Shown here piece after piece: positions 3,732 to 51,192 of a stretch of 64,000 nucleotides of DNA. Numbering within the stretch: the stretch's first letter is position 1; every line of letters begins with the position of its first letter. Below the pieces are notes generated by a model that had not been told where the DNA came from, searched no databases, and was given only the letters and a program-made list of their open reading frames with translations. The DNA is from an uncultured virus (IMG/VR IMGVR_UViG_3300042892_000790) (lineage: Duplodnaviria; Heunggongvirae; Uroviricota; Caudoviricetes; Crassvirales), in IMG/VR virus record IMGVR_UViG_3300042892_000790. One strand, written 5' to 3'. The position numbers were made by a program, and so were the translations under genes.

Positions 3732-4046
3732 TTAGTCCTCGTCGCGTAGCATCATCTTTGCTAACGCCTCGTGAAGTTCCTTTGGTACAAAGTCCTCGAC
3801 GTGTCGGTACTCTTGAATCAGTCGCTGGATGTAAATCGAAAGGCTTTGAAGTTCCACTGCCTCGTTGGGGCTGGGCTCCACCAACTCGACGTTGGTGTAC
3901 GTCTCGATGATGTTGCACTGCTCCAACTCCTCGTGGTTCACCTTGTCGTCGTTGTCTCCAAGCCAATCGTGTACCTCTTGGATGTTCTCTGCATCTACTA
4001 CCAACTCCGTGGCGTAGGTTCTGCTAATTACTACGTTGTATTTCAT
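3732..4046 (-). CDS. hypothetical acidic early protein
   Basis: 104-aa ORF, operon packing. Confidence 0.7.
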   Translation of the reverse strand: MKYNVVISRTYATELVVDAENIQEVHDWLGDNDDKVNHEELEQCNIIETYTNVELVEPSPNEAVELQSLSIYIQRLIQEYRHVEDFVPKELHEALAKMMLRDED

Positions 4047-4306
4047 TTTAAGTTCTCCTTTATGTATTGTTTGAATTCATTGCTTGTTCTCATGTAGACC
4101 TTGTCTACCAGTACCCATGTCGCGTTGCTCCACTTGTAGTTCGTCTTGATTTGGTTCCCTCCGTAGAGGTAGAACTCTTGCTCAATGAACACGTCTGGCT
4201 TGATGTTTGAGAATACGCTCTCGTTTACCCGTTGGTACTCCTCGTTGAAGTACTTGTCAGACAATTTTAAGAACTCCTCGATGGTGAATTTTTGTTCAGT
4301 GCTCAT
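4043..4306 (-). CDS. hypothetical early protein
   Basis: 87-aa ORF with ATGA overlaps. Confidence 0.65.
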   Translation of the reverse strand: MSTEQKFTIEEFLKLSDKYFNEEYQRVNESVFSNIKPDVFIEQEFYLYGGNQIKTNYKWSNATWVLVDKVYMRTSNEFKQYIKENLK

Positions 4307-4893
4307 TTTAGTTTGTTGATTAGGTTGATGATGTTGTCCAATTGGGTCATGTGATTCTCGTAGTAGTCGCTCATGTCAGCAATCCTTGAGTGGTTGTGCA
4401 GTTCGTTGAACTCGTCCATCGCCACGTCCAATGTGTGTAGCATGGCATCGAAGTCCTCGGACTTGTAGTCACCTAGGCCGGCCTCTTCTGGCTCGTCTCC
4501 CTCTCTCATGAGTCGGTACTCGGATCCACTAGCGCAGTCCCATATGGCCTCTTGGTCATGGTGCTGGCCTAGAACGATGGCGACCTCCTTGGTTTGTACG
4601 TTCTCAGAAATGTCGAAGACGAATCGGCCGGCATTGACCCAGCATCCCATGTAGTAGTTCGGGTCGGCCAACTGCTCAGCATGGCGGAGGAAGTAAGACC
4701 TACCGAATGCGATAAGGTCGCAACCACTTGGAGCCGTCTCCTCGTATCCCTTGATGGATACCATGAAGCCATGGTCGGGGTTGTGGTCGCCCGTGTTGAT
4801 GTTGTAGGAGAAACCGATGTGGTTTGTTTCAGCGTTGCGCAAGTGTGCGATGAGTGTGTTGTGGCTAGTGCCCATTACGATAGTTGATTTCAT
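4303..4893 (-). CDS. early protein, possible SAM-lyase/DUF3293-like fold plus acidic tail
   Basis: Motif G-C-W...F-D-I-S...A-I-V-L-G-x4-Q-E-A-I-W-D. Confidence 0.4.
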   Translation of the reverse strand: MKSTIVMGTSHNTLIAHLRNAETNHIGFSYNINTGDHNPDHGFMVSIKGYEETAPSGCDLIAFGRSYFLRHAEQLADPNYYMGCWVNAGRFVFDISENVQTKEVAIVLGQHHDQEAIWDCASGSEYRLMREGDEPEEAGLGDYKSEDFDAMLHTLDVAMDEFNELHNHSRIADMSDYYENHMTQLDNIINLINKLK

Positions 4894-4904
4894 GTCTATG
4901 TTTA

Positions 4905-5123
4905 TTAGTCGTTAAATTCGGTGTAGTAAAAGTCATCGTTGGTCAAGTACTCTTCGTAGTACTCGCACAAGTCATGGCTAAGGTGGAACCAAGATGACTC
5001 GTATGACTTCTCAGAGATGATGTCTCTGCACTTGTCAGAGCATGCGTAGTGTTCGCCTTGGTCGAAGACGTAAACGTTGTGGCTGGGTGTTCCGCAGTGG
5101 GAACATGTTCTTTGTGTTTCCAT
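4905..5123 (-). CDS. small zinc-finger protein
   Basis: CSHC...ACSDKC; first gene after hammerhead 3. Confidence 0.65.
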   Translation of the reverse strand: METQRTCSHCGTPSHNVYVFDQGEHYACSDKCRDIISEKSYESSWFHLSHDLCEYYEEYLTNDDFYYTEFND

Positions 5124-5136
5124 GTCTTGTTGTTTT

Positions 5137-5192
5137 GGTTAAGAGGGCTGGATGTCCAGCCCTTTCGTCTATTGAAGACTCATCAGTTAACC
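5137..5192 (-). ncRNA. type I hammerhead ribozyme HH3 (cleavage after CUC, 5143|5142)
   Basis: GGUUAA CUGAUGA GUCU UCAAU AGAC GAAA GGGCUGG ACAU CCAGCCC UC UUAACC. Confidence 0.92.
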
Positions 5193-5588
5193 TTTTCTTG
5201 ACGCTATCCAAAGTTGGGCGCGATGGTTCATCTCTGACTCAGACAATACCACGTCGATGAAGTCGGTTCCATCTAGGTTCACCACGTTCAATACTATGAT
5301 TTGGTTTCCCTCGTCTACAAATACGTGGTATCCGTTCTCCTCGAACCATAGCCATGCCATCTGAAATTCAGTCCTACTTGGGGCTTGGCTCATGACTTTG
5401 TGTAGGTCGGTATCTTGGAAGTGCATCTCGCTTCCGTCCAAGAAGTACAAGGTCTGGCGTGTGCCGTCGATGGTCTCCACGATGTGGGCTCTGACCTCGC
5501 CGTGCTCGATTACTTCGTACATGCTGTCGTCCTCGCTTGAGATGATGTAAGGCCATTTTACTTCGGGTAATTTGTTTAAGTGCTTCAT
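5187..5588 (-). CDS. hypothetical early protein
   Basis: 133-aa ORF; its last codons GGU UAA are stem I of HH3. Confidence 0.7.
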   Translation of the reverse strand: MKHLNKLPEVKWPYIISSEDDSMYEVIEHGEVRAHIVETIDGTRQTLYFLDGSEMHFQDTDLHKVMSQAPSRTEFQMAWLWFEENGYHVFVDEGNQIIVLNVVNLDGTDFIDVVLSESEMNHRAQLWIASRKG

Positions 5589-5595
5589 GTTCTTG

Positions 5596-5805
5596 TTATT
5601 TTAGTTGGGCGATTACCTTGTTGGATAGGCTCACATAGAGACTGCTATGGACAAAGAAGTTGTTGTACTTCTCGGGGTCTTCGGCTATGTCTTGTAGCGT
5701 TAATTCCATGATTCTCTCGATGCGCTCAGTTAAAAGTGCAACCTCGATGGTGTCAAGGCTCTTGATTAGGCCTCTTAATTTTTGTTCGTTGGTCTTGTTT
5801 TTCAT
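5596..5805 (-). CDS. hypothetical early protein (MKNKTNEQKLR...)
   Basis: ATG 20 nt after the HH2 cut site, same AGAC-AUG context as the sister genes. Confidence 0.7.
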   Translation of the reverse strand: MKNKTNEQKLRGLIKSLDTIEVALLTERIERIMELTLQDIAEDPEKYNNFFVHSSLYVSLSNKVIAQLK

Positions 5806-5819
5806 GTCTTTGTTGTTTT

Positions 5820-5875
5820 GGTTAAGATGGGGTGCTTCCACCCCATTTCGTCTATTAAAGACTCGTCAGTTAACC
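5820..5875 (-). ncRNA. type I hammerhead ribozyme HH2 (cleavage after AUC, 5826|5825)
   Basis: GGUUAA CUGACGA GUCU UUAAU AGAC GAAA UGGGGUG GAAG CACCCCA UC UUAACC. Confidence 0.92.
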
Positions 5876-6370
5876 TTTGGTGAACGTCATGTCGTACTCT
5901 TGGCTTCTCTTGGTCATCCATGCCCTAGCCTCTCTGCTGGTGCCTACCATGACCATCTCGCCCGTTTCTGGGTTGTGGAACTTGCCGTATGAGATGTTGA
6001 ACGTCTTCGAGTCCTCAATCTCTTGCATCAGAGCCTTCGCGCCTTCGATGTCCTCGGCCAGAAGGAACTTGTGTAGGTCTTTGTAGTTCCTCCCGTCGGC
6101 AGTCACTTGGCTCTTGTCTAGGCGGTAGAATCCGCCCGATGTGATGCCTCCGCCGTAGCCAAAGTCACCGAACAAGCGCAGTCCATCTGGTAGTGTGTAC
6201 TCTACAAAGTAGCGGTCGTAGTCGTATCCGTCTCCCTTTGCTACATGGTAGAATACCACGTCGGTGTACCTAGAGACCATCTGGTCAATGTTTTTCTCCC
6301 ATGTCTGGGGGTTGTACTCACGTCCTTCGCAAGAACGGATTTGGTCGGGGGTTAAGATTTGTGCCTTCAT
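5870..6370 (-). CDS. hypothetical early protein flanked by hammerheads
   Basis: 166-aa ORF; ends GGU UAA = stem I of HH2. Confidence 0.75.
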   Translation of the reverse strand: MKAQILTPDQIRSCEGREYNPQTWEKNIDQMVSRYTDVVFYHVAKGDGYDYDRYFVEYTLPDGLRLFGDFGYGGGITSGGFYRLDKSQVTADGRNYKDLHKFLLAEDIEGAKALMQEIEDSKTFNISYGKFHNPETGEMVMVGTSREARAWMTKRSQEYDMTFTKG

Positions 6371-6383
6371 GTCTGTGTGTGTT

Positions 6384-6439
6384 GGTTAAGACGGGGCTGG
6401 TGAGCCCCGTTTCGTCCATTTAGGACTCGTCAGTTAACC
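6384..6439 (-). ncRNA. type I hammerhead ribozyme HH1 (cleavage after GUC, 6390|6389)
   Basis: GGUUAA CUGACGA GUCC UAAAU GGAC GAAA CGGGGC UCACCA GCCCCG UC UUAACC. Confidence 0.93.
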
Positions 6440-6772
6440 TTACTTGAATAGTTCGTGCCCTACTCGGAAGTTGCGCCTCTCCTCTCTCTCGCCAGCCTCT
6501 GAGATTTGAAATTTGGCGTTGTTCAAGAAAGTGATGAACTCCCTCTGGCTCGCGTCGTCCGTGAATCCCCATGTCATGAGGTAGGTCTCGTTGTAGCGAA
6601 CTTGAGCGATGATTTGAACGCTTGGCAAGGAGCCCCTCTCGTGGAACTTGGTTCCATAGGATAGGCTGAAGCCGTCGTCAGATTTGAAGGTGCCGTTGCT
6701 CTCAGCGTTGCGGGTGTACTGGCTCCATGTGATGTTGGAGATTGCCTTGATGAATTGTTGTGAAGTTTCCAT
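6440..6772 (-). CDS. first early protein, hypothetical
   Basis: 110-aa ORF between the tRNA mimic and HH1. Confidence 0.7.
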   Translation of the reverse strand: METSQQFIKAISNITWSQYTRNAESNGTFKSDDGFSLSYGTKFHERGSLPSVQIIAQVRYNETYLMTWGFTDDASQREFITFLNNAKFQISEAGEREERRNFRVGHELFK

Positions 6773-6791
6773 GTTTATGTTTGTTTAATTT

Positions 6792-6840
6792 TGGTTGCAT
6801 CCCCTAGAATCGACAAGGCTGGAAGGCTGACTTGGATGCA
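6792..6840 (-). ncRNA. anticodon-less tRNA mimic with 3' ACCA
   Basis: UGCAUCC-(15 nt)-CCUUG-UCGAUU-CUAGG-GGAUGCA-ACCA. Confidence 0.6.
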
Positions 6841-7128
6841 GTTTAGATTGGCAAGCCTAGACCCCTAGACCTTTACCGCTGAAGGACTATCAGCGAACCC
6901 GTTGTGCCCCACAATTCACGCCTTATACCACTTTGTTGTACCATCAGCCACCCGTACTATGGGTGGCCTACTCTCCGAGGTTGTGAGCCTCAAGGCGCTC
7001 ATGTCTTTTTGGACTTTTATCAGTATGTCAAAGAACTCCCAAGCAGAGCCGACGCAATGTCGGGGTCTAGAAAGGCTTGGCTATGGAAAGCCCCTCGGGG
7101 CAGACAACCATAGTATGAATCAGAACTC
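6841..7128 (-). ncRNA. long structured 5' leader of the early operon with boxA-like element
   Basis: Stems CUAUGG/CCAUAG, GCCCC/GGGGC, GCCACCC/GGGUGGC, CGCCUU/AAGGCG, CGCUGA/UCAGCG, long-range CUAGACCCC/GGGGUCUAG; GTTCTTTGACATA at 7024-7036. Confidence 0.65.
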
Positions 7129-7132
7129 AATA

Positions 7133-7174
7133 CAATGATACGACCGATTGTTGACAACACCAAACATGTCAACA
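7133..7174 (-). promoter_or_regulatory. putative early promoter (TTTG-N20-TATCATTG) overlapped by palindrome TGTTGACA-N10-TGTCAACA
   Basis: One-mismatch match to the Bacteroidota -33/-7 consensus; perfect 8-bp inverted repeat 7149-7174. Confidence 0.5.
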
Positions 7175-7344
7175 TTTATTTTCAACTTTGTTTAAGGATT
7201 TTCGCAACTGATTTGAAAACCTTGTACGGATTATCGCAACTGACTATCAAGGCCTTGCAGATGGCAGATTCATGATGCGACCATGGGCGAGGTGTAATGG
7301 AAACTCTGAGCGTTTCCGCAGTTTCCGTAGGTCGTGAGCCCAAC

Positions 7345-7520
7345 ACGGGGCGCGGGTCGGGGCACCCACCTAGGGCACGGGCGGGCGGTTAGGGTAGGCA
7401 CGGGGCACCCCCTAGGAAAGGCCAAAAATTCGGGGCAAGGCCGACCCCCCGCACCCCCATGGGGCAAAAATAATCGGTTTTCCCAGCGGCCGGCGCGACG
7501 CAATATGGGGGTATTGCCCA
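7345..7520. other. GC-rich, G-run-rich non-coding tract between divergent operons
   Basis: Many GGG/GGGG runs; far more GC-rich than flanks. Confidence 0.55.
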
Positions 7521-7761
7521 AAACCTCAGCATATCTGGTACTCATCGGTATTGTACTCATAGGTATAAACTGCTCTTAAAAATATCAACCTTTAGGTTTA
7601 CTTTTGCCACATGGCTATAGAAATATCATTACTTTTCCCCTCCGCCTTTTTGATTGGCGTCGAGTACTTCAAGTCGAACTATCCTGGCGAGCACCAAGAG
7701 ATCGACATCAGCTTGTTTTTGTTCAGAATTACTTTTATCTGGTAGTCCCTATCTTTGCGTT

Positions 7762-7944
7762 ATGAAGAAACCATTAAACAATCCAATGCCACCACAGATG
7801 TCTGGCATCGCTAAGATGGCCGAGGCCAAGTCACAGATGAAGCAGATGAAGAAGACCATGATGATGGCAGAAGCCATGGCAATGGCGAAGAGGATGAGCG
7901 ACATGCCGATGACCATGAAGGTGAAAGGCAGCTGCGGTAAGTAG
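7762..7944 (+). CDS. Met/Lys-rich small protein (60 aa, 15 Met)
   Basis: TATCTTTG 4 nt before ATG; terminator follows. Confidence 0.7.
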   Translation: MKKPLNNPMPPQMSGIAKMAEAKSQMKQMKKTMMMAEAMAMAKRMSDMPMTMKVKGSCGK

Positions 7945-7977
7945 TCAAATTGCAAACCCCTTAATTAAGATCACCTA

Positions 7978-8004
7978 AAGGCACCCTGATTTGGGTGCTT
8001 TTTT
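7978..8004 (+). terminator. intrinsic terminator
   Basis: AGGCACCC-TGATTT-GGGTGCTT-TTTT. Confidence 0.75.
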
Positions 8005-8222
8005 GTGTCGCTTTTCGTGGATAAGTGTCGGTTTTGTGTTGACAAGTGTCGATTCTACTTAAAGTGACACTGGAGGTGACATGGGTTAACTCATTGATCT
8101 TTAATTTCTTATCTCTTTTGTGTCGTTTTTTCTCTGTTCAATACTAATAAAAAAAAATATATATAGAATAGTAAATTTATATATATAGAGTAGGAACCCC
8201 TGAAATCGACATATCGACACAA
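8003..8222. repeat. iteron-like GTGTCG array with AT-rich core (origin-like element A)
   Basis: GTGTCG at 8005, 8025, 8046, 8120; inverted CGACA at the right end; A-run/TATATATAG core; homologous to 59905-60123. Confidence 0.65.
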
Positions 8223-8275
8223 ATGAGATTTATCTCATTTATGATGCAATGATCAAGTTTTGCTATCTTTGATCC

Positions 8276-8854
8276 ATGGAACTAACAAGAGAGACCGTCA
8301 TGGCTGCGTGCTATAAATTGGGTCATAAGTATTTTGAGAATGGAGTTTACAATATGAATGTAATTGGTGTCAGAAACTCTGCACCGGGGAAGAAGGTAAC
8401 GAACATCTTCGACGACTGGATGACATTGTCGTACAAGGACGAAAAGGGCGTGTGGCAGTTCCACAAGTGGGCATGCACGACTGATCCGGGTACGAAGGCG
8501 GTAAAGCAGTTCCACAATGCGGGCGGTGTCGCTAGGGTTGTTCCGGGGCAGTACCCTGCCAGCCACTTTGTTGGTCTTCACCAAGGCAAGTACAAGGCAC
8601 TGAAGCAGTGTGGGCCGGTAAAGGTTTACAGGGACGCGAACAAGGACATGGTCTTCGACGAGACCAAGGTTGACACGGGAGTATTTGGTATCAACATCCA
8701 CCATGCGGGCGCCGACTCGGCGGTGGTAGAGAACTGGAGCGAGGGATGTCAGGTGTTCAAGCGGATCAAGGACTTCGATGAGTTCATGCGGATCGTGCAA
8801 TTGGACAAGGGCGAGAAGTGGACATACACATTGATCGAGAGTAAAGATTTATAA
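8276..8854 (+). CDS. L,D-transpeptidase (YkuD)-like peptidoglycan enzyme, probable endolysin
   Basis: GINIH...WSEGCQV His/Cys catalytic motif. Confidence 0.65.
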   Translation: MELTRETVMAACYKLGHKYFENGVYNMNVIGVRNSAPGKKVTNIFDDWMTLSYKDEKGVWQFHKWACTTDPGTKAVKQFHNAGGVARVVPGQYPASHFVGLHQGKYKALKQCGPVKVYRDANKDMVFDETKVDTGVFGINIHHAGADSAVVENWSEGCQVFKRIKDFDEFMRIVQLDKGEKWTYTLIESKDL

Positions 8855-8870
8855 GTATATTTGTACCATT

Positions 8871-9083
8871 ATGCCAAAAGAACAAAAAAGAGATTTCCCA
8901 CTAAGCCCGACACCCAAGACTGGAACGACCCCGGTTTATCGTATTGAGAAACCGAGCAAGGGATACCAAGACAGTGTTTCCGCTTACAACATCACAAAGA
9001 ACCCTAACTTTAAGCCAAAGGCCCCGGCCAAGACATACGTGAAGGACGTGCCATCTAGCAGCATCAAGTTCAAGAAGAAATGA
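8871..9083 (+). CDS. small basic protein
   Basis: K/P-rich; own TATATTTG promoter. Confidence 0.6.
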   Translation: MPKEQKRDFPLSPTPKTGTTPVYRIEKPSKGYQDSVSAYNITKNPNFKPKAPAKTYVKDVPSSSIKFKKK

Positions 9084-13653: not shown

Positions 13654-13666
13654 TATCTTTGTAAGG

Positions 13667-15996: not shown

Positions 15997-16011
15997 TTAT
16001 ATTTGTAGTAA

Positions 16012-16950: not shown

Positions 16951-17294
16951 TGAAAGACGCTTGCTACACCAAGGTAAAGGCACAGTACTCTGTCTTCCCA
17001 TCCGCCAGGGCTTCGCAAGCAATTGCTAAGTGCAGGAAAGGGAGCGGGGTAGTTAGAAAGACAAAGGCCGGATCAGACCTAAAGCGTTGGGGATCCGAGA
17101 AGTGGGTAGACACCAAGAGCGGAAAGGCCTGCGGGGCCGGTGGCTCTAACGAGTACTGCCGACCGTCGAAAAGGGTATCTTCCAAGACTCCGGTAACAAG
17201 GTCAGAGATGAGCCTGTCAAAGCTAGCAGCAAAGAAGGCCGAGAAGTCAAGAGTGGGCATGGGCTCACGGGTGAGCAATGTAAAGAGGAAATGA
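16950..17294 (+). CDS. basic Cys-containing phage protein
   Basis: KDACYTKVK..Y.VFPSA.AS.AIAKCRK; WGSEKWVD...CG...YCRP. Confidence 0.7.
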   Translation: MKDACYTKVKAQYSVFPSARASQAIAKCRKGSGVVRKTKAGSDLKRWGSEKWVDTKSGKACGAGGSNEYCRPSKRVSSKTPVTRSEMSLSKLAAKKAEKSRVGMGSRVSNVKRK

Positions 17295-17372
17295 TGCTCG
17301 AGGGTTTCTTGTTCGGGCTATTATTCATTACCTTTACAATCGGAATTTCATACATTATAGGAGAGTACTTAG

Positions 17373-17642
17373 ATGGCAAAGATTACAGGGAAAAACACTA
17401 GACCGGGCAGTAACAAAGTTACTGGCCGAGATTATTTAAAAGAAAAAGAGTATCAGTCTTCCCCCAAACGCCGGGCGTATCGCAGTGAGCTAAACGCAGA
17501 GGCACGCGAGAGAGGCATCTACGGAAAGCGTAGTGCAATGGGCAAAGACCTGTCGCACACCAAGGACGGGAAGATGGTTCTGGAGAGCAAGTCTTTGAAT
17601 CGCCGTCGCCAAGGAGCCAACGGCAAGTCGACAAAGAAATAA
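17373..17642 (+). CDS. small basic protein, HNH-like C-terminus
   Basis: RDY..E..YQ...GKDLSH...S.NR. Confidence 0.55.
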   Translation: MAKITGKNTRPGSNKVTGRDYLKEKEYQSSPKRRAYRSELNAEARERGIYGKRSAMGKDLSHTKDGKMVLESKSLNRRRQGANGKSTKK

Positions 17643-17671
17643 CTAACCCAAGGTTAGTTATCTTTGCATAA

Positions 17672-21086: not shown

Positions 21087-21490
21087 AATACGCTATTGCT
21101 ATATTGTTACTAACATCGTGCAGTGCTAACTGGCACTTGAAGCGTGCTATCAAAAAAGACCCATCACTACTCTTGAGTAGGGATACGGTATTGGTACACG
21201 ACACCCAGTTCGTAACAAAGGAGCGTGTGCTTACCGACAGCTTCTTTACCACCTGCTACGATACCATCACACTTGAGGACAGCTTTGTATACACTCAGGT
21301 GATCCGCAGGGACAATGTGATTAAAGTTTACACTAAGTGTAAGTCAGATACCGTACGTATTACTACGAAGATCCCTTTCAGCTTGCCCCCAACAGTGTCG
21401 TATAAGAACGATCCGTTCTGGAAATCTTTGGCAATTGCGTTTGGAACCTTGTTATTGTTAATTATTATCATTAGATTTGTACTTAAATGA
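21080..21490 (+). CDS. lipoprotein with C-terminal TM, unimolecular spanin-like
   Basis: LLLTSC lipobox, beta-rich middle, C-terminal hydrophobic helix. Confidence 0.6.
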   Translation: MLKYAIAILLLTSCSANWHLKRAIKKDPSLLLSRDTVLVHDTQFVTKERVLTDSFFTTCYDTITLEDSFVYTQVIRRDNVIKVYTKCKSDTVRITTKIPFSLPPTVSYKNDPFWKSLAIAFGTLLLLIIIIRFVLK

Positions 21491-31107: not shown

Positions 31108-31126
31108 TTATACGTATATTTGTTGT

Positions 31127-38987: not shown

Positions 38988-39004
38988 TATCGTAACTTTG
39001 CATA

Positions 39005-39751: not shown

Positions 39752-39772
39752 CTTCGCTATCTTTGCGTAGCA

Positions 39773-42297: not shown

Positions 42298-45200
42298 ATG
42301 ACCGATTTAAAGCAATCATTAAGAGATTTTGTTGCAACAGCAAATAGTGGAAAGTACGCTGATGAGAATGTATTAATATCTAAATTCCCAGAATTAAAGG
42401 GGTACGACATTGGAGTGTTAAAGGATTTTGTTGCTACCTCTAATAGTGGTAAGTATCAAACAGAGGACGAGTTGTTTTCAAAGTTCCCTGAGTTTGCAGT
42501 AAAAAAAAAAGAATTGGTTTCTCCTTCTCAACAAAAAGCTCAACCTACTTCATTGGCTACTGGTGGGGCGATGGAAGGTGGGCCTTCGGTGCCTTCTGTA
42601 AATCCTCCAAGCAATAAGCTTCAAGAGGAATTATTCCAAAAGACAAGACTAGCCGCTAGCGCAGTTACTGCGTCTGCAAAGCCAGGATACACTCCAGTGC
42701 CGAAGGAAGAAGCTCAGAAAGCTTTCTATGGCAAGGCCAAGGTTGCGCCTGTTGCTTTGTATTTAAAAAGCCAAGGCACAAAGGAAGAAGCCGTATCTAA
42801 CTTAAATAAAGATTTTGGCAAATTGGGCGTTAGGTTTGAGCAAGCTCAAAATCCTATAGCTAAGTCCATGGGTGACGTTGTTGCTACTGCAGACAATGGT
42901 CAGTCCATTACAATTCAAGCATCAGACAATGAAAGACTAGCGAAGATCGAGTCTGAAAGGCTTCAAAACTTCTTGATGAATAACTCTGCTGGAGTAGAAA
43001 AGAAGGAAGTAACTCCAATAGACATGCTCAGAATGACACAGGGTGGTATTTCTGAGATGGAAGAAAATAAATTCAAAAGGGTTTACACGCCAGAAATGAT
43101 TAATGAAACTGTAAAGTTTGTTAATGAAGAGGTTAATAAATCGAACAAGAAGTTACAGGACATAAATAATCAGATTCAAGAAATTAACAATGAGGCCGCA
43201 AGGTTAAATGGCATTGTTGGTACTGCCACTCCAGAGGAGCAAGACAGAATCAAGTATTTGACTGATAGGTATGACTTGTTAAAGTCTGACTTTGATAGGG
43301 AAAGGGAGAATGCAAAAGTTGTATCCCAGCTTGGAAGCGAAGGAATTGGCATGGCCGCAGCTGAGCACTTGAAACTGTTAGAGCAAAAGGGTGGTTTTGG
43401 GAAATCAATATACAACCATACCGTAAACATGATAGGCAATACCGTTAACGGCGCTTTTCAATTGGCTTCGCTTGGTATAATGGATAAGGGTGCAGATTAC
43501 GCACAAAACTTAACAAACGAATTTAAGAAAGAGTTTAAGTTCTCAGAAACACAGGCATACGAACAAAGTAGCAACATGGCTATGAATGTTCTTTTCTCTA
43601 TGCCAGAATGGCTTCCAATGGCTGCAATGGGACCTGCCGCTGGTACTGCATTTATGTTTAACCAAGGGGTTGGACGTAGAATGGAAGAAGTAAATTCCAA
43701 CGAAGAGACTAAGAACATGTCTCAAGCAGAGAAGCTGGCCATGGTAGCGCCTATGGCATACGTAGAGGCTAGGTTGGAAAATCTTGGTCTATCTGCTTGG
43801 TTGAGCAAGAACAAGGGCTTAGCGTCTTCGATTGCTATTAAGGCTGTAGCAAACGTAGCTCCTAAAGCGGGGGCTGCAGGTGTTGCTAGATTAATCAATA
43901 CCGAAATCAATAACCTTGCATTAAAAGGTGTTTTCAATGTTGCAGGAGCTACTCTCGCGGAAGCCGAAACTGGTGCATTACAATATGCAACAGAAAGCGG
44001 AATGAAAGAGCTTTACAATATTGCAGAAGGAAAACAAATATTCAAGCAACCGCAATTTGGATCAGAGGCATGGGCAAAAGAACTTGCCGAAAGTTCGCTC
44101 ATGGAAGGCCTTGGTGGTATGTTTGTTTCTGGACCAATTAACATAGCTCAACAAACTGCAAATTATGTAGTAGGCAAGTCAAATACAAATCAAACATTTG
44201 GTATTGTAAAGGACTTGTTAAACGACAACATTGCCGAGAGGTCTATGATTGCTCAGTTAAGCGCTGCTGTAAATGATGGTAAACTTTCAAAAGAAAAGGC
44301 ACAAAACACTCTGTACAACTTCAGAGAGGCCAAGGCTATTGTAAGAGAACTTCCTCAAGAACTAAGCGAAGACAACCAAAGAGCTGCATTTGATTTGATT
44401 GCAGAGAAGAGGAAATTGACAAAACAGATTGAGGGAAAAGATCCTTCATTGGTAAACAAACAAAAGAAGCGTATAACAGAAATTGAAAACCAACTAATAG
44501 ACATATCAAATGCCGTTCAAGAGCAAACAACAAGTGAAGTACCTGTACAGTCAGAAGCCAGAAGTGGCGAAGAAGTTCAGAAAGGACAGCCCCAGCCAGA
44601 ACCTGAAGTCGTTGCCGAAGAAGGTCAAGAAAAAGTAGTAGTTCCAGGCGAAAAGGATATTGTTTCTGGTATTGAGATAACGTATCCTACAGATCAGGAG
44701 AAATCTGAGCGTCAAGCTACAAGAAACTCGGTTGAATACGTTTCTATGAAATCGGCTGAGCTTCCTGTTATTACAGAGGAAGAGCTTCAAGAGGACTTAC
44801 AGGGAGAATTTGCAATGGTTACCGCGGAGAACCCAATGGCACAACCACTTACCGAAGAGGAGAATACTGCGTTAAATTTAAAGGCAGAGAAGTGGCTTAC
44901 AGATAAGGGTTACTCTCCAAAAAGAATTGTAGGTAAGTATGACCAGGCGGAGAACTCGTTCTTTGTAAAAGGCATGACCAAAGAGGATTCTTTGGCGTTT
45001 GCCAAGGAGTTCAACCAAGACTCAGTCGCACATTCTGATGGCCTTATATACCAGAGTGGAAAGATGAATCCGAGGGATACTGCTCAAGATAATTTTGAAA
45101 CTAAAAACTTTGTTGTTGGAGATAACTTTGTGTCAGTTGTAAATACACCAGAAGGCCCAAAAACTTTCTCTGTGGGATATAACTTTGACACAGAGATTGA

Positions 45201-48200
45201 TTATTCTCCAACAAGCAACTTCGACCAGGCCTTGGCTAATTCAGCTCAAGCGCTTAACGTAGTAGCACCGGGATTAAAGGTGATAGTGGGAGAGAATGTA
45301 GACGATGTACAGAACCAAATCGTAGAGGCTATCGCACCATTGATTGGAGAGAGACAGGCCGTACAGACAGCTGAAGAATTTGCTACTGGAACCAAGGGTC
45401 AGACGATCTTTGTTGATGGCAAGCCTTTCGCTGTGGTATTCGACAAGACTACTGCAGATAGCCGTACCGCAGGACACGAGGCATGGGAGGTTATGCTGAA
45501 CGATGCGTTCGGCAACGATCAAGCTAAGTTCAAGGAGTTTACAGCAGGCATCGACTCTCAACTAAGGGCTCAAGGTTTTACTGATATCGCTGATGCTTTG
45601 GATGCATTTGCCAGCCAGAAGGGCTACGAAGCCGTAAAATACTCGGAGTACATGGCCGAGCTTGGTGGTATGTTGGTAGAGGCTGGTTTCGGAAAGGGAC
45701 CACTAACGGCTCAACAGAAGACATTACTACAGAAGATCGGTGAAATCATCAACAAGTTCGCTGAGCTATTCACCGGCAAGAAGCAGTTCTTAGATCAGGC
45801 AAGCCCAGAGGATATCCTTGGATTTATGGTGACCATCTCTGAGAAGGTTGCTAAGGGAGAGGACGTGTCAAGCTTCTTTAGACCAACTGAAAACACCGAA
45901 ACAATAAAAGATACCAAGAAAGTGCTTTCAAATAGAAGCCAAAAGATTGGAGACTTTGATATTCAATACTTTGAAGACGAAGCTCAATTTAAGGATTTGG
46001 TTGATCGCGGATTAGTTGTTCAAAATGCATCTATTGACGAGGCTGCTGGTCAGCCAGTAGCTACGCATCAGCCAGACAATTTGCTTGTAGGTAATGTAAA
46101 TTACAAAGGAAAGCAGATCATGGAAGGCAATGGTGGGATTTATTATGTATTGAAGTTTGGCAATGTATGGGCATCTGGAAAACAAACCAGTGCTAAAACT
46201 CTTTCTAATTACATAAACAAATCACGCAAGGAGTCTACTGACGGAATTGGCCGTATGGTCTTAGTTCGTGGAAGTCAAGACAAGATGATTAGTTCTGTTC
46301 AAGGAGTAAAGGCAGCAATGCGTATCCTAGAGGAACTTGTTTTTGACAATCTTATTTCTACCTCTGATTTCAGAAAAGCTTTGACAGTTGCAGGTAAGGC
46401 TTATAACATTGATTTTTCTGGAAGTAATTCTGCCAAGCAAATTCAAAAGGATATTGAAGACAAGTTCATGAACGTATCAGATTCTACATTTGCTAGACGT
46501 GGAGATTTCTTCAGTACACTTGTTAATGAGATTGGAAAGCTAGATTCTGCTAAGAAAAATATTAAGGAAATACAAAAAGCTTTAGGAGCTACTAAAAATA
46601 TTCAGTTCTCAAAGGGCGGTATCCGTCAACAGATAGGAACAGTACTTACCGAAAGACTTCTTATTGGTCTTGATTCTGGAAATGCATATGCAATTGTTGA
46701 GGTAGATGAAGACGTTATAGTTAAGAAAGACGACCAACATCCAAGCTATCCTTTTTCTATTGTTACAAAAAGTGGTAAGCCACCAGTACTAAAGGTGTTC
46801 AACTATAGACCAAAAGCTGTTGAAGCGATTACAACTATGTCCGGAGAGAAGGCGTCAAACGCTCAGCTTGGTCTTGCTCAAATGGGGATGGGCATGGGTC
46901 GTATTGCTTCTGACAAAAAGATAGTAGTTAAGTCACGCTCACAGAAGAATGTGCCAACGGTAGTAGACGAGGTTCTTACCGATGACGGCAAGGGAAACTA
47001 CCTGTTCGTTCACTACTCTGATGAGAATAGAGATGTGATCAAGCCAATGTCAGGATCTAAGAGCAACTTCACAAGCCGTGAAGAGGTATCTGCGATATCT
47101 GCCGTAGGTGGTGTTGCGATGTACTACACAAAGTCAGGGCAGAAAGAGAGCGGTGTTGGGAATGTTCCACACACAGTTCTAGTTCCAAAGGACAAGGTGT
47201 ACTTCTACGGAAGCACAGAAAAGGGAAAAGTATCTCACGATCCAGAAGGGTTTGAGGAAGAGGCAAGACAAAGATTCCAAGCCTACAGGAACCGTGGAAA
47301 CGAGGACAGGCCAACAAAGTATGCGTTTGACGCAAACAACTCTGCAGCTTGGGTGACCAAGGTGGCCGCAGAGAACGGATACGATATGCTTGTTACCAAC
47401 TGGGGAGGGCCAAAGAGCTACCGTGCACAGACAACCAAGGCATTAAAGCCAGAGGCTGAGTACACTGGTTTCAAGAAGCCAGAGCCCGTGGTGTTTGAGG
47501 TGGGTGATGAGGTCTTCTTAAATGGAAGATACTCTACTATTGTAGCCGTCGATGGAAATGTTCTTTCTTATGAATTCCAAAACGACTACGGAACATTCAA
47601 TACTGGAAAGTTCCCATTGTCACAATATACAAGTGACAGGATTACAATGATCGAGAAGGCTAAGCCGTCTGTTACAACTCGCTCTCAGAAGGTTGAGGTA
47701 AAGACCATTCCTGGATACGACAGAATGATGAACGAGGTCGAGGGTATTATGGACAAGAGCATTAATAGAGGCAGGTCTTATAATCAAACAAGCGCTAACG
47801 CAGTTGACTACATTCAGAAGTCATCTGTTTATGAAAGGGCAGACGATTCTCAGCGTGAGCAGATCATCCGCGACTTCAAGAAGATCAGAGGAGAGAAGTT
47901 TAAGACCGCTCCGTCTGTGGCTAAAATACTAGGCCAGATCGAGGACGTAAAAAAGGTAACAGTAAAAGAGAGCACAGCGCTTAAGGATCAGATCAAGTTG
48001 GAGGCCAAGGCAGCCAAGGACTCTGCAGCCTTTGTAAAGCAGCTCCGCATGGACATCTCTGGTAGGTTGAAGTCTATGGTTGGCCGTGGCATGATGTCTG
48101 CTAGGCAGGCAACTGCTATTATCTCTCGCTACGACAAGATGAACATATTGAACCCTGTAATGCGTGACCGCTTTGTAGACTACATGTCTAGGGTATTCCA

Positions 48201-51192
48201 AAGCGCTGAGTACATGGACAAGATCAAGGAAGCGTCAAAGCTTAGAGCGTCTATAAAGAAGGCTATGAAGTCACCAGCAAACCAAGCAGAGATTGCAAAG
48301 CTTGCTAAGGACTTTGGAGACATCGATCCGTCTCGCGTAGAGAATATTGACGACTATATCAACAACGCAACACAGATGCTAAACGCAGTGGCCAGAAAGA
48401 CTGGAGACCCATTGATGCGTAGCCTTGTTAACGCTGGTGACATGGCATCTTATATTGAGACAGAAATAGAATCTCAAAGAGAGCAGATCAAGAACGAGCT
48501 ACTCGATAAGTATAAAGAATTGGTCGATGCTGGTGTATTGTCAAGCGACATGACCATCAACGAAATCAAAAAGGTAATAGCCGCGATCGAGGAGAATGAC
48601 AACGAGTCTGTGGCAAAGGAAGAGAAGGCCAAGGCCGCTGTCAAGGAAATGATGGCCGAGGTATCTCCATTGATTGTGCAGATCGTTAAGACCGGAGAAG
48701 ATCCGTTTACAGGAGAGCCTATATCACTGACACAGGACGAAAAGAAGTCATTGATTGCATTGACTAATATTGACACTGACAGCCTTTCATTGTCAGAGGC
48801 ATTGCAGGTACTTGAGTATGCTAACAACTTCGTTGCAAATGGCATCACTTCCGGTATCGATGGAATGGTAAGCCTTTACCAAGGTGGGCTGAATGCCGGA
48901 GAGTTAGTTGATGATGGTATCAAGTCTATCCCATTGAGCAAGTACTTCTCTGGACTAGTTGGAAGAGTATGGGGAGAAGGATTCGCAACGCTTCCAATGC
49001 TTAACAAGTTGTTATGGGGTAACACAAGGCGTGCTATAATGGTCTCTGAAAAGGCCGGAATCAATGGAGTGTCGAATGGTAAGGCCAAGGCCTTGAAGAT
49101 GGTTGACAATGCTGTTAAACAGTACGTAAAGCTATTCTCGAAGACCAAGGACTTCTTGGCAAGTGAGAATGTTGTCGAGCGTGGTGTATTTGCATTCATG
49201 TCTAGAAACGTGGTCGGCGATGAATTCCAGGCGCAAGACGAGTTTAATAGGCGCAAATCACTCATTAAGGAAACAATCCAGGCGCTATCTGACGTAGACA
49301 ACAACACTGAATCAGAAATCAAGAAGGGCGAGGTCATCCAAAAGGTGTACGAAAAGGTCTTGAAAGATGCCAAGAATATTAATGACGTCAAGAAAAACGT
49401 AAGCCAGATCAACCAAGACGCTGTAAACTGGTGGATAAACAAGTGGTCTGAGAACTTCGACCGTATCGACGAGGTATCTAGAAACGTGTACAATACACAA
49501 TTGTCTAGGGACATTGACTTTACACCCGACAGGTTCCAACTAAAGGAGGCACCAACAGCTGTCGAGGAAGACTTTGAATCTGGATTCTTTGGAAACTTTG
49601 AGTACGTTGACACGTCTAAGTCTGGATCACTGAGAAAAAATAACCGTATTTCTAATCTTCCAAAGGACAAGAATGGTGTTAAAACTCGTATAGTCAACCT
49701 TGACTTTGACGTGAATAACGTTAACGCATTCACGAATGCAATGGTAGACGTAGAGACCGCTAGCTCTGTGATGCAGATGAAAGGTTTTGTGACATCTAAA
49801 AACTTCTCAAAGCTTTTCTCAAACAAGGAAGACAAGAACCTTTACAAGAAAAGACTGATCAAGTACGTAAACCGCGCCAAGGGTGGTTCTTATGTGGACC
49901 AGAATGAGCTTTCAAAGATAAATAGAACAATTAATACCATTGCATCATTTGGTGTTGCTAAGGCATTGTTTAGTGTGTCACAGCCATTTAAGCAGTTCTT
50001 TCCTCCAATGATAAACACTTTTGTTCAGACAGGTAGGTTTGACTTAAACAAGTTGCTGTACAATGGCGGAATGGGCTTTATCGACAGCTCTGGTTATCCT
50101 ATCGCCAACCGTGGTGTCGCATCTCAAGGTGAACTTAAGTCTATCAACAGACAGTTGGTAGAGGCAGAGAAGAACTTGGCCATGCGTGGACTAGATGGTG
50201 TTGCGGAGTTTAGCAACAAGACTCTTGAAATTACACTTAAGAATCCGGACATTTTTGCTGCACGTGCCTCTTGGATTTCTTTTTACTTGAGCAAATTGAA
50301 GAAGCAGGGTGTAAATATCTCTGGAATAGATTTCAATACTCACGAGCTAAATAAAGATGCGGCTGACTACGCACAGGCGATGGTCGACTCTCAGCAAAAC
50401 ATCAGTGACACCGACATGCAGGGAGAGATCTTCGCTAGCAAGCAGCCAGCTACTGTGTTCTTGAGACGTGCCATTCTTCCATTGATGACATTTACCTTAA
50501 ACCAAAAGACTCGTATATGGTCTGACGTAAGAACCCTTTCAAATGACGTGTCGTCAAAAGATGACAAGGTAGAGGCGGCTAAGTCTTTGTCTGGAGCATT
50601 GATCGAGTTAGTAGCGTTCCAGGGCATAGTACTTGCGTTCAAGGAGCTTTACAATGTAGTAGCAGCTGCCATCATGGGTGAAGATGAGGACGAAGAGGAA
50701 AAGAAGATTAGAAAGATGAGACAGTCTCAATCCACTGCTCAGGCATTCATGAAGGACTTCTTCTTGCCACCGATCCCCGGGATGGATATCTTAGCTAGCA
50801 AGGGTGTCAATTACCTTTTAGACGAGACGGGCCTATCTGACGAGTTACCATACAAGTGGTACGGTATCGAGGACGAGGAGCAGAAGTTCAGGCTGTACGA
50901 CAAGATGAACCAAGGTTACTTAGACATGCTTGGAACGCAGGGTATTGCGGCAGAGAAGGCTCTTGAACTAATCGAATACTATGACGCTGCTATCGATGGT
51001 GAGTTCACCAAAGAGTACAACGGCAATAAAGTAAAAAAGGCCCTCATGGAAGAGGACCTTGATATAGCTAGAATGAATGCTGTTATTATGACTGCTTATT
51101 ATGGAGGAATATTGCCATCAGACATGGCTAACATCGTCAACATAATGAACAAGAAGATTCAGAAGAGAGCAGAGCAGGTAGACGAGGACTAG
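42298..51192 (+). CDS. giant ejected polyvalent protein (2964 aa)
   Basis: DUF3293-like TAENP...ENS...FNQDSV domain, zincin-like TAGHEAWE, ART-like LFVHYS...GYDM, RSQK linkers. Confidence 0.75.
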   Translation: MTDLKQSLRDFVATANSGKYADENVLISKFPELKGYDIGVLKDFVATSNSGKYQTEDELFSKFPEFAVKKKELVSPSQQKAQPTSLATGGAMEGGPSVPSVNPPSNKLQEELFQKTRLAASAVTASAKPGYTPVPKEEAQKAFYGKAKVAPVALYLKSQGTKEEAVSNLNKDFGKLGVRFEQAQNPIAKSMGDVVATADNGQSITIQASDNERLAKIESERLQNFLMNNSAGVEKKEVTPIDMLRMTQGGISEMEENKFKRVYTPEMINETVKFVNEEVNKSNKKLQDINNQIQEINNEAARLNGIVGTATPEEQDRIKYLTDRYDLLKSDFDRERENAKVVSQLGSEGIGMAAAEHLKLLEQKGGFGKSIYNHTVNMIGNTVNGAFQLASLGIMDKGADYAQNLTNEFKKEFKFSETQAYEQSSNMAMNVLFSMPEWLPMAAMGPAAGTAFMFNQGVGRRMEEVNSNEETKNMSQAEKLAMVAPMAYVEARLENLGLSAWLSKNKGLASSIAIKAVANVAPKAGAAGVARLINTEINNLALKGVFNVAGATLAEAETGALQYATESGMKELYNIAEGKQIFKQPQFGSEAWAKELAESSLMEGLGGMFVSGPINIAQQTANYVVGKSNTNQTFGIVKDLLNDNIAERSMIAQLSAAVNDGKLSKEKAQNTLYNFREAKAIVRELPQELSEDNQRAAFDLIAEKRKLTKQIEGKDPSLVNKQKKRITEIENQLIDISNAVQEQTTSEVPVQSEARSGEEVQKGQPQPEPEVVAEEGQEKVVVPGEKDIVSGIEITYPTDQEKSERQATRNSVEYVSMKSAELPVITEEELQEDLQGEFAMVTAENPMAQPLTEEENTALNLKAEKWLTDKGYSPKRIVGKYDQAENSFFVKGMTKEDSLAFAKEFNQDSVAHSDGLIYQSGKMNPRDTAQDNFETKNFVVGDNFVSVVNTPEGPKTFSVGYNFDTEIDYSPTSNFDQALANSAQALNVVAPGLKVIVGENVDDVQNQIVEAIAPLIGERQAVQTAEEFATGTKGQTIFVDGKPFAVVFDKTTADSRTAGHEAWEVMLNDAFGNDQAKFKEFTAGIDSQLRAQGFTDIADALDAFASQKGYEAVKYSEYMAELGGMLVEAGFGKGPLTAQQKTLLQKIGEIINKFAELFTGKKQFLDQASPEDILGFMVTISEKVAKGEDVSSFFRPTENTETIKDTKKVLSNRSQKIGDFDIQYFEDEAQFKDLVDRGLVVQNASIDEAAGQPVATHQPDNLLVGNVNYKGKQIMEGNGGIYYVLKFGNVWASGKQTSAKTLSNYINKSRKESTDGIGRMVLVRGSQDKMISSVQGVKAAMRILEELVFDNLISTSDFRKALTVAGKAYNIDFSGSNSAKQIQKDIEDKFMNVSDSTFARRGDFFSTLVNEIGKLDSAKKNIKEIQKALGATKNIQFSKGGIRQQIGTVLTERLLIGLDSGNAYAIVEVDEDVIVKKDDQHPSYPFSIVTKSGKPPVLKVFNYRPKAVEAITTMSGEKASNAQLGLAQMGMGMGRIASDKKIVVKSRSQKNVPTVVDEVLTDDGKGNYLFVHYSDENRDVIKPMSGSKSNFTSREEVSAISAVGGVAMYYTKSGQKESGVGNVPHTVLVPKDKVYFYGSTEKGKVSHDPEGFEEEARQRFQAYRNRGNEDRPTKYAFDANNSAAWVTKVAAENGYDMLVTNWGGPKSYRAQTTKALKPEAEYTGFKKPEPVVFEVGDEVFLNGRYSTIVAVDGNVLSYEFQNDYGTFNTGKFPLSQYTSDRITMIEKAKPSVTTRSQKVEVKTIPGYDRMMNEVEGIMDKSINRGRSYNQTSANAVDYIQKSSVYERADDSQREQIIRDFKKIRGEKFKTAPSVAKILGQIEDVKKVTVKESTALKDQIKLEAKAAKDSAAFVKQLRMDISGRLKSMVGRGMMSARQATAIISRYDKMNILNPVMRDRFVDYMSRVFQSAEYMDKIKEASKLRASIKKAMKSPANQAEIAKLAKDFGDIDPSRVENIDDYINNATQMLNAVARKTGDPLMRSLVNAGDMASYIETEIESQREQIKNELLDKYKELVDAGVLSSDMTINEIKKVIAAIEENDNESVAKEEKAKAAVKEMMAEVSPLIVQIVKTGEDPFTGEPISLTQDEKKSLIALTNIDTDSLSLSEALQVLEYANNFVANGITSGIDGMVSLYQGGLNAGELVDDGIKSIPLSKYFSGLVGRVWGEGFATLPMLNKLLWGNTRRAIMVSEKAGINGVSNGKAKALKMVDNAVKQYVKLFSKTKDFLASENVVERGVFAFMSRNVVGDEFQAQDEFNRRKSLIKETIQALSDVDNNTESEIKKGEVIQKVYEKVLKDAKNINDVKKNVSQINQDAVNWWINKWSENFDRIDEVSRNVYNTQLSRDIDFTPDRFQLKEAPTAVEEDFESGFFGNFEYVDTSKSGSLRKNNRISNLPKDKNGVKTRIVNLDFDVNNVNAFTNAMVDVETASSVMQMKGFVTSKNFSKLFSNKEDKNLYKKRLIKYVNRAKGGSYVDQNELSKINRTINTIASFGVAKALFSVSQPFKQFFPPMINTFVQTGRFDLNKLLYNGGMGFIDSSGYPIANRGVASQGELKSINRQLVEAEKNLAMRGLDGVAEFSNKTLEITLKNPDIFAARASWISFYLSKLKKQGVNISGIDFNTHELNKDAADYAQAMVDSQQNISDTDMQGEIFASKQPATVFLRRAILPLMTFTLNQKTRIWSDVRTLSNDVSSKDDKVEAAKSLSGALIELVAFQGIVLAFKELYNVVAAAIMGEDEDEEEKKIRKMRQSQSTAQAFMKDFFLPPIPGMDILASKGVNYLLDETGLSDELPYKWYGIEDEEQKFRLYDKMNQGYLDMLGTQGIAAEKALELIEYYDAAIDGEFTKEYNGNKVKKALMEEDLDIARMNAVIMTAYYGGILPSDMANIVNIMNKKIQKRAEQVDED

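Follow-up and report, generated by a model that had tools for sequence, protein, structure and literature searches.

Hammerhead elements at the gene junctions

We analyzed a 64,000-nucleotide stretch of DNA from an uncultured Crassvirales virus (IMG/VR record IMGVR_UViG_3300042892_000790), referred to below in its entirety as the window, in which three hammerhead ribozymes lie at gene junctions of the minus strand. The window is nearly a whole phage genome (~64 kb, 45% GC), and within a minus-strand block of ~16 small orphan genes, which runs from position 6772 down to 616, the ribozymes are confined to the first 1.7 kb. The genes and RNA elements concerned are listed in the order in which the minus strand is read.

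6440..6772, minus strand: gene 1, 110 aa, an orphan of no family, upstream of hammerhead 1
6384..6439, minus strand: type I hammerhead 1, cut predicted at 6390/6389 (5' end 6389)
6371..6389, minus strand: leader of gene 2 after the cut, 19 nt (UUAACC...AGAC), AUG at 6370
5870..6370, minus strand: gene 2, 166 aa, an orphan between hammerheads 1 and 2, without a homologue in four related contigs
5820..5875, minus strand: type I hammerhead 2, cut predicted at 5826/5825 (5' end 5825)
5806..5825, minus strand: leader of gene 3 after the cut, 20 nt, AUG at 5805
5596..5805, minus strand: gene 3, 69 aa, the first gene past hammerhead 2
5187..5588, minus strand: gene 4, 133 aa, separated by 7 nt from gene 3, with hammerhead 3 behind it
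5137..5192, minus strand: type I hammerhead 3, cut predicted at 5143/5142 (5' end 5142)
5124..5142, minus strand: leader of gene 5 after the cut, 19 nt, AUG at 5123
4905..5123, minus strand: gene 5, 72 aa, a Cys-rich orphan, the first gene past hammerhead 3, without a homologue in four related contigs

All three copies share one layout. The 5' half consists of GGUUAA (stem I), the core CUGA(C/U)GA, and a 4-bp stem II with a 5-nt loop, and the 3' half consists of GAAA, a 7-bp stem III with a 4-nt loop, the A15.1-U16.1 pair, UC, and UUAACC (stem I). The conserved type I core is complete in each copy, with C at position H17. The stem III arms differ among the copies and pair perfectly in every one (CGGGGCU/AGCCCCG, UGGGGUG/CACCCCA, and GGGCUGG/CCAGCCC), and stem II shows a compensatory exchange of C-G for U-A (UCC..GGA versus UCU..AGA). 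The pattern CTGAYGAG..CGAAA..TC was found at three loci in the window, compared to 0.12 expected, and none of 100 shuffled sequences reached three.

The Rfam hammerhead models, to which the initial annotation of this DNA had pointed, recovered the elements in part. Copy 1 matched Hammerhead_1 (RF00163) with 34.6 bits against a gathering score of 34, but copies 2 and 3 had no RF00163 match, even at E values up to 10 in a 5-kb search. With RAGATH-1-hammerhead (RF03152), copies 2 and 3 scored 25.5 and 30.7 bits, and the three copies together spanned 21.2 to 30.7 bits against a gathering score of 56.3. A RAGATH-1 identity was rejected because of these low scores and because the upstream hairpin of that model aligned with nonstandard pairs. 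We also used a covariance model (R1) built on 21 related viral sequences, which remained from 28 of equal length after removal of duplicates. The R1 scores of copies 1, 2, and 3 were 65.0, 64.3, and 61.7 bits (E ~1e-16), and with filters off no other match in the window exceeded 11.4 bits. No other ribozyme class was found in whole-window Rfam scans, either at gathering scores or at E values up to 0.5; matches to DUF2693 and DUF805b were far under threshold and were set aside.

The minimum-free-energy (MFE) fold was the hammerhead three-way junction in all three copies, with z scores of -3.7 to -3.9 and an agreeing centroid structure. In both structures stem I is open and stems II and III are capped by loops, a topology with which the Rfam alignment of copy 1 agrees. 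Core sequence, R1 scores, and MFE fold thus bear out three complete minus-strand hammerheads as the initial annotation had placed them. Its pairing of the copy-specific stem III arms and its compensatory change in stem II were likewise confirmed, and the geometry of the sequence gives the same cut ends (6389, 5825, and 5142) and leader lengths (19, 20, and 19 nt). Its statement that each element begins at the upstream stop codon needs amendment. Hammerhead 1 does start directly 3' of the gene 1 stop (TAA at 6442-6440), but genes 2 and 4 end with the UAA within stem I (GGU UAA) of hammerheads 2 and 3, respectively.

Conservation of GGUUAA hammerheads in viral contigs

An exact-pattern scan of viral contigs, in which the core, two pairs of stem II, and a portion of stem I were constrained, gave at least 125 loci. 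Together with the window, these yielded 123 nonredundant parsed copies, 122 of which are complete type I hammerheads; the one miss was locus L048. Among the matches listed, stem I is GGUUAA/UUAACC in ~100 copies, and in the variants (AGUUAA/UUAACU, GAUUAA/UUAAUC, and others) both strands change together. By a general parser, the 125 listed loci of ~3 kb hold one copy in 71 cases, two in 30, three in 14, four in 3, five in 4, six in 2, and seven in 1.

A search with R1 gave 197 matches in 100 of ~264 viral sources, and covariation was examined on the best 150 matches (129 distinct rows) in an alignment that is fitted to the model and so favors its structure. In these 129 copies, 99.9% of the 1,923 helix cells are standard pairs. 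Changes on both sides of a pair account for 305 cells compared to 72 in shuffled alignments (none of 500 reached the observed number) and affect 9 of the 15 pairs. When the partner strands were slid against each other as a control, only 25 to 42% of cells paired. No core-inactivating change was found among the class copies matched by R1 or by the general parser. We conclude that the three elements in the window are genuine, evolutionarily maintained hammerheads at coding-strand gene junctions.

Conservation extends beyond the helices. Across 167 distinct copies, an A precedes stem I (position -1) in 98% and follows it (position +7) in 90%, and loop II has the form U-N-A-N-U, with its fixed positions conserved in 98%, 90%, and 87%. 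Natural hammerheads need loop II in contact with stem I for activity at low Mg2+ (PMC3088659), and from their conservation these A residues and loop II positions are candidates for such a contact. In the same 167 copies, G makes up no more than 7% at each of the leader positions +7 to +17. In 99 of 120 parsed copies, the AUG of the following open reading frame (ORF; at least 35 codons) lies 19 to 24 nt from the cut, with a sharp lower bound at 19 nt; two further copies had no such ORF within 200 nt.

When stem I was left free in the scan, 33 of 121 copies among the matches listed had a UUAA-type stem I. Some of the other stem I families have leaders that resemble Shine-Dalgarno (SD) sequences, and their cut likewise lies ~20 to 28 nt 5' of the AUG. 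In one family with stem I GUCCUU/AAGGAC (viral contig loci L177, L179, L215, and L216), a conserved ACGC..ACCUU..GGUGUA segment and no start codon follow the ribozyme; this segment may be another structured RNA freed by the cut.

One related type I hammerhead occurs in a cultured phage, Flavobacterium phage vB_FspP_elemoA_7-9A (NC_055852.1; locus L264), at 17282-17347 on the minus strand, within the stretch 17275-17382 between gp67 and gp69. Its stem I is GGCAAA/UUUGUC and its leader is 28 nt long. Since a cultured relative exists, the regularities of the class are worth following up. An annotated 35-aa plus-strand gene (gp68) overlies this hammerhead and is probably spurious, and a 21-codon ORF just upstream shares its first ten bases with gp69. 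Blastn searches of window positions 4000-9000 against named phages gave no match, and a search with hammerhead 3 and its flanks gave three chance-level matches only.

Proposed processing of the minus-strand message and alternative roles

The proteins encoded in the window include a large terminase (TerL), portal and virion proteins, GroEL, GroES, replication genes, and a protein of 2,964 aa. One TerL relative, from an uncultured podovirus of a spring, is 68.7% identical, and relatives at ~42% come from 68 Flavobacterium phage records and 15 Cellulophaga phage records. The phage is related to podophages of Flavobacterium and Cellulophaga. The window DNA was found in lake-water metagenomes. An SD-like 4-mer is present at only 11 of 66 gene starts, which fits a Bacteroidota host, and the host is probably a member of this phylum. 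Ribosomes of Bacteroidota (Bacteroidia) ignore SD sequences and depend for initiation on little structure and on adenines upstream (PMC6847099 and PMC13000457).

None of the ~16 genes of the minus-strand block belongs to a PHROG or Pfam family of known function, and PHROGs and Pfam scans of the early-gene proteins found no RNA repair or ligase enzyme. Judging from its position, the block is presumably expressed early. No sigma-70-like promoter and no terminator-like site was found on the minus strand from 6772 to 4900, although a sigma-70 scan is ill suited to Bacteroidota; cotranscription of genes 1 to 5 is therefore plausible. The three copies bracket gene 2 and the gene 3-4 pair within one phage operon. 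A noncoding, hairpin-rich stretch of ~340 nt 5' of gene 1 (6800-7128, minus strand), with a weak partial Rfam match to DUF2693 (23.8 bits against 81.3), is a candidate for a structured RNA or for the early promoter region.

The motif TAnnTTTG, the form of the Bacteroidota-type -7 promoter box, is absent from the minus strand between 616 and 7400. The whole window holds 77 such boxes compared to 44 expected, and none of 100 shuffled sequences reached 77. In about ten plus-strand late genes the box lies 4 to 7 nt 5' of the AUG, mostly as TATCTTTG or TATATTTG.

8264-8271, 8856-8863, 13654-13661, 15998-16005, 17659-17666, 21472-21479, 31115-31122, 38993-39000, and 39758-39765, plus strand: TAnnTTTG boxes

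If these boxes are -7 promoters, many late messages would be leaderless or nearly so. With boxes near the AUG in late genes and none on the early strand, 5'-proximal starts may be the norm in this phage, and the ribozymes would supply them without promoters.

The following account of cleavage in the cell, product release, and effects on translation and stability is built from sequence, fold, conservation, geometry, and mosaicism. The three ribozymes probably cut a long early message into single-gene pieces. One long minus-strand message, starting upstream of 6772, would carry all three, and each would cut itself cotranscriptionally after C17 to leave 5'-OH ends at 6389, 5825, and 5142. The upstream piece would retain its stop codon, and its 3' terminus would be the compact ribozyme body, carrying a 2',3'-cyclic phosphate. 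Stem I, weak with 6 bp of which four are A-U pairs, would dissociate after the cut and free a downstream piece that begins with a 5'-OH and a G-poor, unstructured leader of 19 to 20 nt ahead of the next AUG. Internal cistrons would thereby become independent messages with a free standard leader, and stability could be set for each message. The shared ribozyme and leader sequence would also serve as a joint for the exchange of early-gene cassettes by recombination. Since the host ribosomes are presumably blind to SD sequences and need unstructured, A-rich leaders, independent messages with a free leader are the likeliest benefit; the 19-nt lower bound and the scarcity of G in the leader, taken together with such a host, point to translation initiation as the main selected effect. 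We favor with moderate confidence the reading that three active type I hammerheads lie in one long minus-strand message and that the main gain is independent cistrons with a free standard leader. We offer a broader proposal more tentatively and consider it doubtful: that the GGUUAA hammerhead and its leader are a promoter-independent generator of 5' ends for SD-blind hosts, that the cut and the release of stem I are required for translation of the next cistron because they expose a G-poor leader of 19 to 24 nt with a free 5' end, and that the unit, whose body forms the 3' end of one gene and whose leader forms the 5' end of the next, is a standard early-gene joint of Bacteroidota phages.

Several observations weigh against the favored reading. 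Only one of the three copies reaches an Rfam gathering score. Stem I has only 6 bp, and the putative tertiary contact that joins it to loop II is suggested by a pattern of conservation. In the class scan, the core, two pairs of stem II, and a portion of stem I were set in advance, so invariance at these positions is partly by construction. MW202828, the closest named complete relative (68.7% TerL identity), has no hammerhead by pattern search, indicating that the device is dispensable. A ribozyme occupies only 3 of the ~16 junctions in the block, and at the remaining junctions genes overlap or are 7 to 11 nt apart; the initial annotation's image of an operon punctuated by hammerheads thus applies to the first 1.7 kb and not to the other junctions. 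The only RNA run with window-related sequence, X24 (6% of sampled words; contigs only), contains a 310-nt contig of a close relative (depth of 3.3) that spans hammerhead 1 into a homologue of gene 4, which is either uncut RNA or carried-over DNA. A 1,116-nt contig of another relative in the same run (depth of 14.4) ends in adapter-like letters 5 nt short of the cut predicted for this other relative. Contigs cannot show RNA ends, so we draw no conclusion from either.

The initial annotation had emphasized message stability. In that case, the 5'-OH would evade RNases that depend on a 5' monophosphate, and the ribozyme body, together with its cyclic phosphate, would shield the other end from 3' exonucleases and tailing. 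The end chemistry of hammerheads is established in general (PMC8782182), and the upstream product always ends in the stable, GC-rich stem III, with 7 bp in the three window copies. However, stability leaves the tight 19- to 24-nt spacing with its sharp lower bound and the G-poor leader unexplained. As the main explanation it seems unlikely, and we rank it as a second candidate for the selected effect, after translation initiation; both the 5'-OH protection and the standardized leaders that the initial annotation had put forward would be consequences of cutting.

The position of the stop codons suggests another role, in which cutting is conditional and tied to translation of the upstream gene. 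A terminating ribosome would have to unwind the ribozyme, and the amount of downstream message set free would depend on how folding balances against the arrival of ribosomes. In 94 of 122 class copies, the upstream stop is either internal to the ribozyme or abuts it: it falls within stem I or the core in 53 (as in window copies 2 and 3, within stem I) and touches stem I in a further 41.

UAA within stem I (TAA at +3): 41 of 122
UAG overlapping the first G: 27 of 122
UAA directly 5' of stem I: 14 of 122
UGA of the core (CUGA): 12 of 122
Stop 4 to 9 nt upstream: 13 of 122
Stop not found by the criteria used: 15 of 122

However, tight packing of phage genes alone would press stops against the ribozyme, the conserved A at position -1 (98%) biases the flank to TAA and TAG, and no ligand-binding or switch element was seen. 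We regard conditional cutting as quite improbable.

Gene order was compared among the window and four related virus records, as mapped below (F, shared family; u, no homologue among the five, with length in amino acids; HH, hammerhead).

Window: F6, HH, u166, HH, F11, F2, HH, u72, F1
G003: F17, HH, F6, HH, F2, HH, F11, u57, F1a, HH, F1b
G005: F17, HH, F6, HH, u105, F2, HH, F15, F1
G002: u90, HH, F14, HH, F2, HH, F15, F1
G004: F14, HH, u59, F2, HH, F1

The differences in gene content fall exactly at the ribozymes, and the genes past hammerheads 1 and 3 (genes 2 and 5) are unique to the window among the five. The ribozyme after F2, the family of gene 4 (hammerhead 3 in the window), has an identical stem III in all five records, and the one after F6, the family of gene 1, has a stem III that differs and still pairs in the three records that have it (the window, G003, and G005). 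In G003, a chimeric copy with the body of window hammerhead 3 and the leader and gene of window hammerhead 2 separates F2 from F11; it has A at position N7 and was detected by R1 and not by the regular expression. Upstream genes thus take the ribozyme body along and downstream genes take the leader, and crossovers fall in the shared stretch of stem I and leader. F17 and the ribozyme before F6 in G003 correspond to 342 nt of unrelated noncoding DNA in the window, and homology resumes 14 nt 5' of the gene 1 AUG. The nearest fragment (G001) had no hammerhead by pattern search. In G003, another hammerhead (locus L261, 2402-2466, minus strand) lies between ORFs of 128 and 178 aa that both match a single 196-aa protein of the window (4303-4893), so that a ribozyme and its leader separate parts that form one gene elsewhere.

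This mosaicism could mean that the elements are recombination joints or the borders of selfish cassettes, with ~50 conserved nucleotides allowing early-gene swaps and self-cleavage being incidental. However, a role as DNA would not keep pairing through 305 double changes or hold the core invariant across 129 copies, and because stem III and loop II diverge freely, less DNA homology is available for such exchange. A mainly recombinational role is very unlikely. It is still harder to credit that a piece between two ribozymes, whose 5'-OH UUAACC end could pair with GGUUAA of the ribozyme at its own 3' end since all copies share one stem I, is rejoined by the ribozyme or an RtcB-type host ligase into a circular mRNA. 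Stem I is nearly invariant across the class, beyond what catalysis alone requires, and of 101 pairs of neighboring copies 88 match fully when their stem I strands are exchanged, with pairing at 5 of 6 positions in the others. However, this count cannot discriminate since GGUUAA dominates anyway, and the invariance can also be put down to common descent and to the stop codon that stem I contains. Other phage hammerhead families combine different stem I sequences in a single contig, no RNA ligase was found among the window proteins scanned against PHROGs and Pfam, and Perreault et al. (2011) sought spliced or circular products and found none (PMC3088659).

Two further features of the window lie outside the hammerhead locus. 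The region 7300-7530 is GC rich and contains repeated GGGGTGCCCCG-like words; a doubtful 96-aa ORF (7270-7560, minus strand) overlaps this stretch, which could serve in packaging, as an origin, or as a terminal repeat. The 2,964-aa protein (42298-51192, plus strand) follows the virion genes, has no PHROG match, and shows only a DUF3293 domain (residues 841 to 910), making it a candidate giant virion or injected protein.

Comparison with known systems

The layout described here has been known in phages since 2011, and the window is a clean new example of it; its mechanism brings in no novel principle. In prophages, Perreault et al. (2011) described single genes flanked by multiple hammerheads; they proposed that long phage transcripts undergo processing into single-gene mRNAs and reported cleavage of three triple arrangements in vitro and of one in Escherichia coli (PMC3088659). 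The window resembles these arrays in having several coding-strand hammerheads at consecutive junctions of a phage operon, with the same proposed role. It differs in that all copies are type I, stem I is fixed as GGUUAA, the stop codon lies inside the ribozyme in copies 2 and 3, the 19- to 20-nt leader is G poor and lacks an SD sequence, and the host range points to Bacteroidota. Neither the spacing rule nor the GGUUAA subclass appears in the excerpted text of that paper, whose Dataset S1 alignments may hold members, and our searches turned up neither a paper that treats hammerheads in phages of Flavobacterium or Cellulophaga nor one on the spacing rule. The protein-free mRNA processing proposed by the initial annotation therefore stands insofar as genuine, maintained hammerheads with short G-poor leaders occupy the junctions, but the idea had already been published. 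Its comparison with RNase III processing of T7 early mRNA holds as an analogy of outcome and not of mechanism.

Among the Rfam families, the elements share the core and topology of RF00163 (clan CL00010) but have a longer stem III, a 14-nt insertion relative to the model. With RAGATH-1 (RF03152) they share a type I-like core, a long stem III, and a stem I that is short and A/U rich and ends in UUA/UAA; in contrast, they score below its gathering threshold of 56.3 bits and do not form its upstream hairpin.

The halovirus hammerhead (HHphage, in HF1 and HF2) also lies a short fixed distance 5' of a start codon, 13 nt from the first early gene, and the transcript has a 5' end within 3 nt of the cut (PMC3088659). 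However, HHphage is a single-copy structural variant with an archaeal host and salt-dependent activity. A functional likeness only exists to RiboJ insulators, in which self-cutting removes the upstream context and gives a gene a defined 5' leader (PMC6206723); these are engineered from a satellite RNA ribozyme with an added hairpin and are used in SD-dependent hosts, whereas the window elements are natural.

According to a 2019 review, more work is needed to define the purpose of phage hammerheads (PMC6765202). The window itself adds no new principle, but the GGUUAA class, with its fixed stem I and its presumably SD-blind hosts, sharpens into testable form the question of what the thousands of hammerheads in phage DNA do. 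The regularities of note are the stop codon inside the ribozyme, the 19- to 24-nt leader, the flanking A residues and loop II, and the modularity of body and leader. A further parallel concerns type I hammerheads in the 5' untranslated and intergenic regions of fungal and plant RNA viruses, which support translation initiation (PMC13725137). These resemble the window elements in occupying a short intergenic span and cutting a few nucleotides (7 in one case) before a start codon, and they differ in their RNA genomes, eukaryotic hosts, cap-independent translation, and different features of helix II and tertiary structure. Should translation of the downstream gene in the phages turn out to require the cut, the link between self-cleaving ribozymes and translation initiation lately reported for those RNA viruses would extend to bacterial translation initiation.

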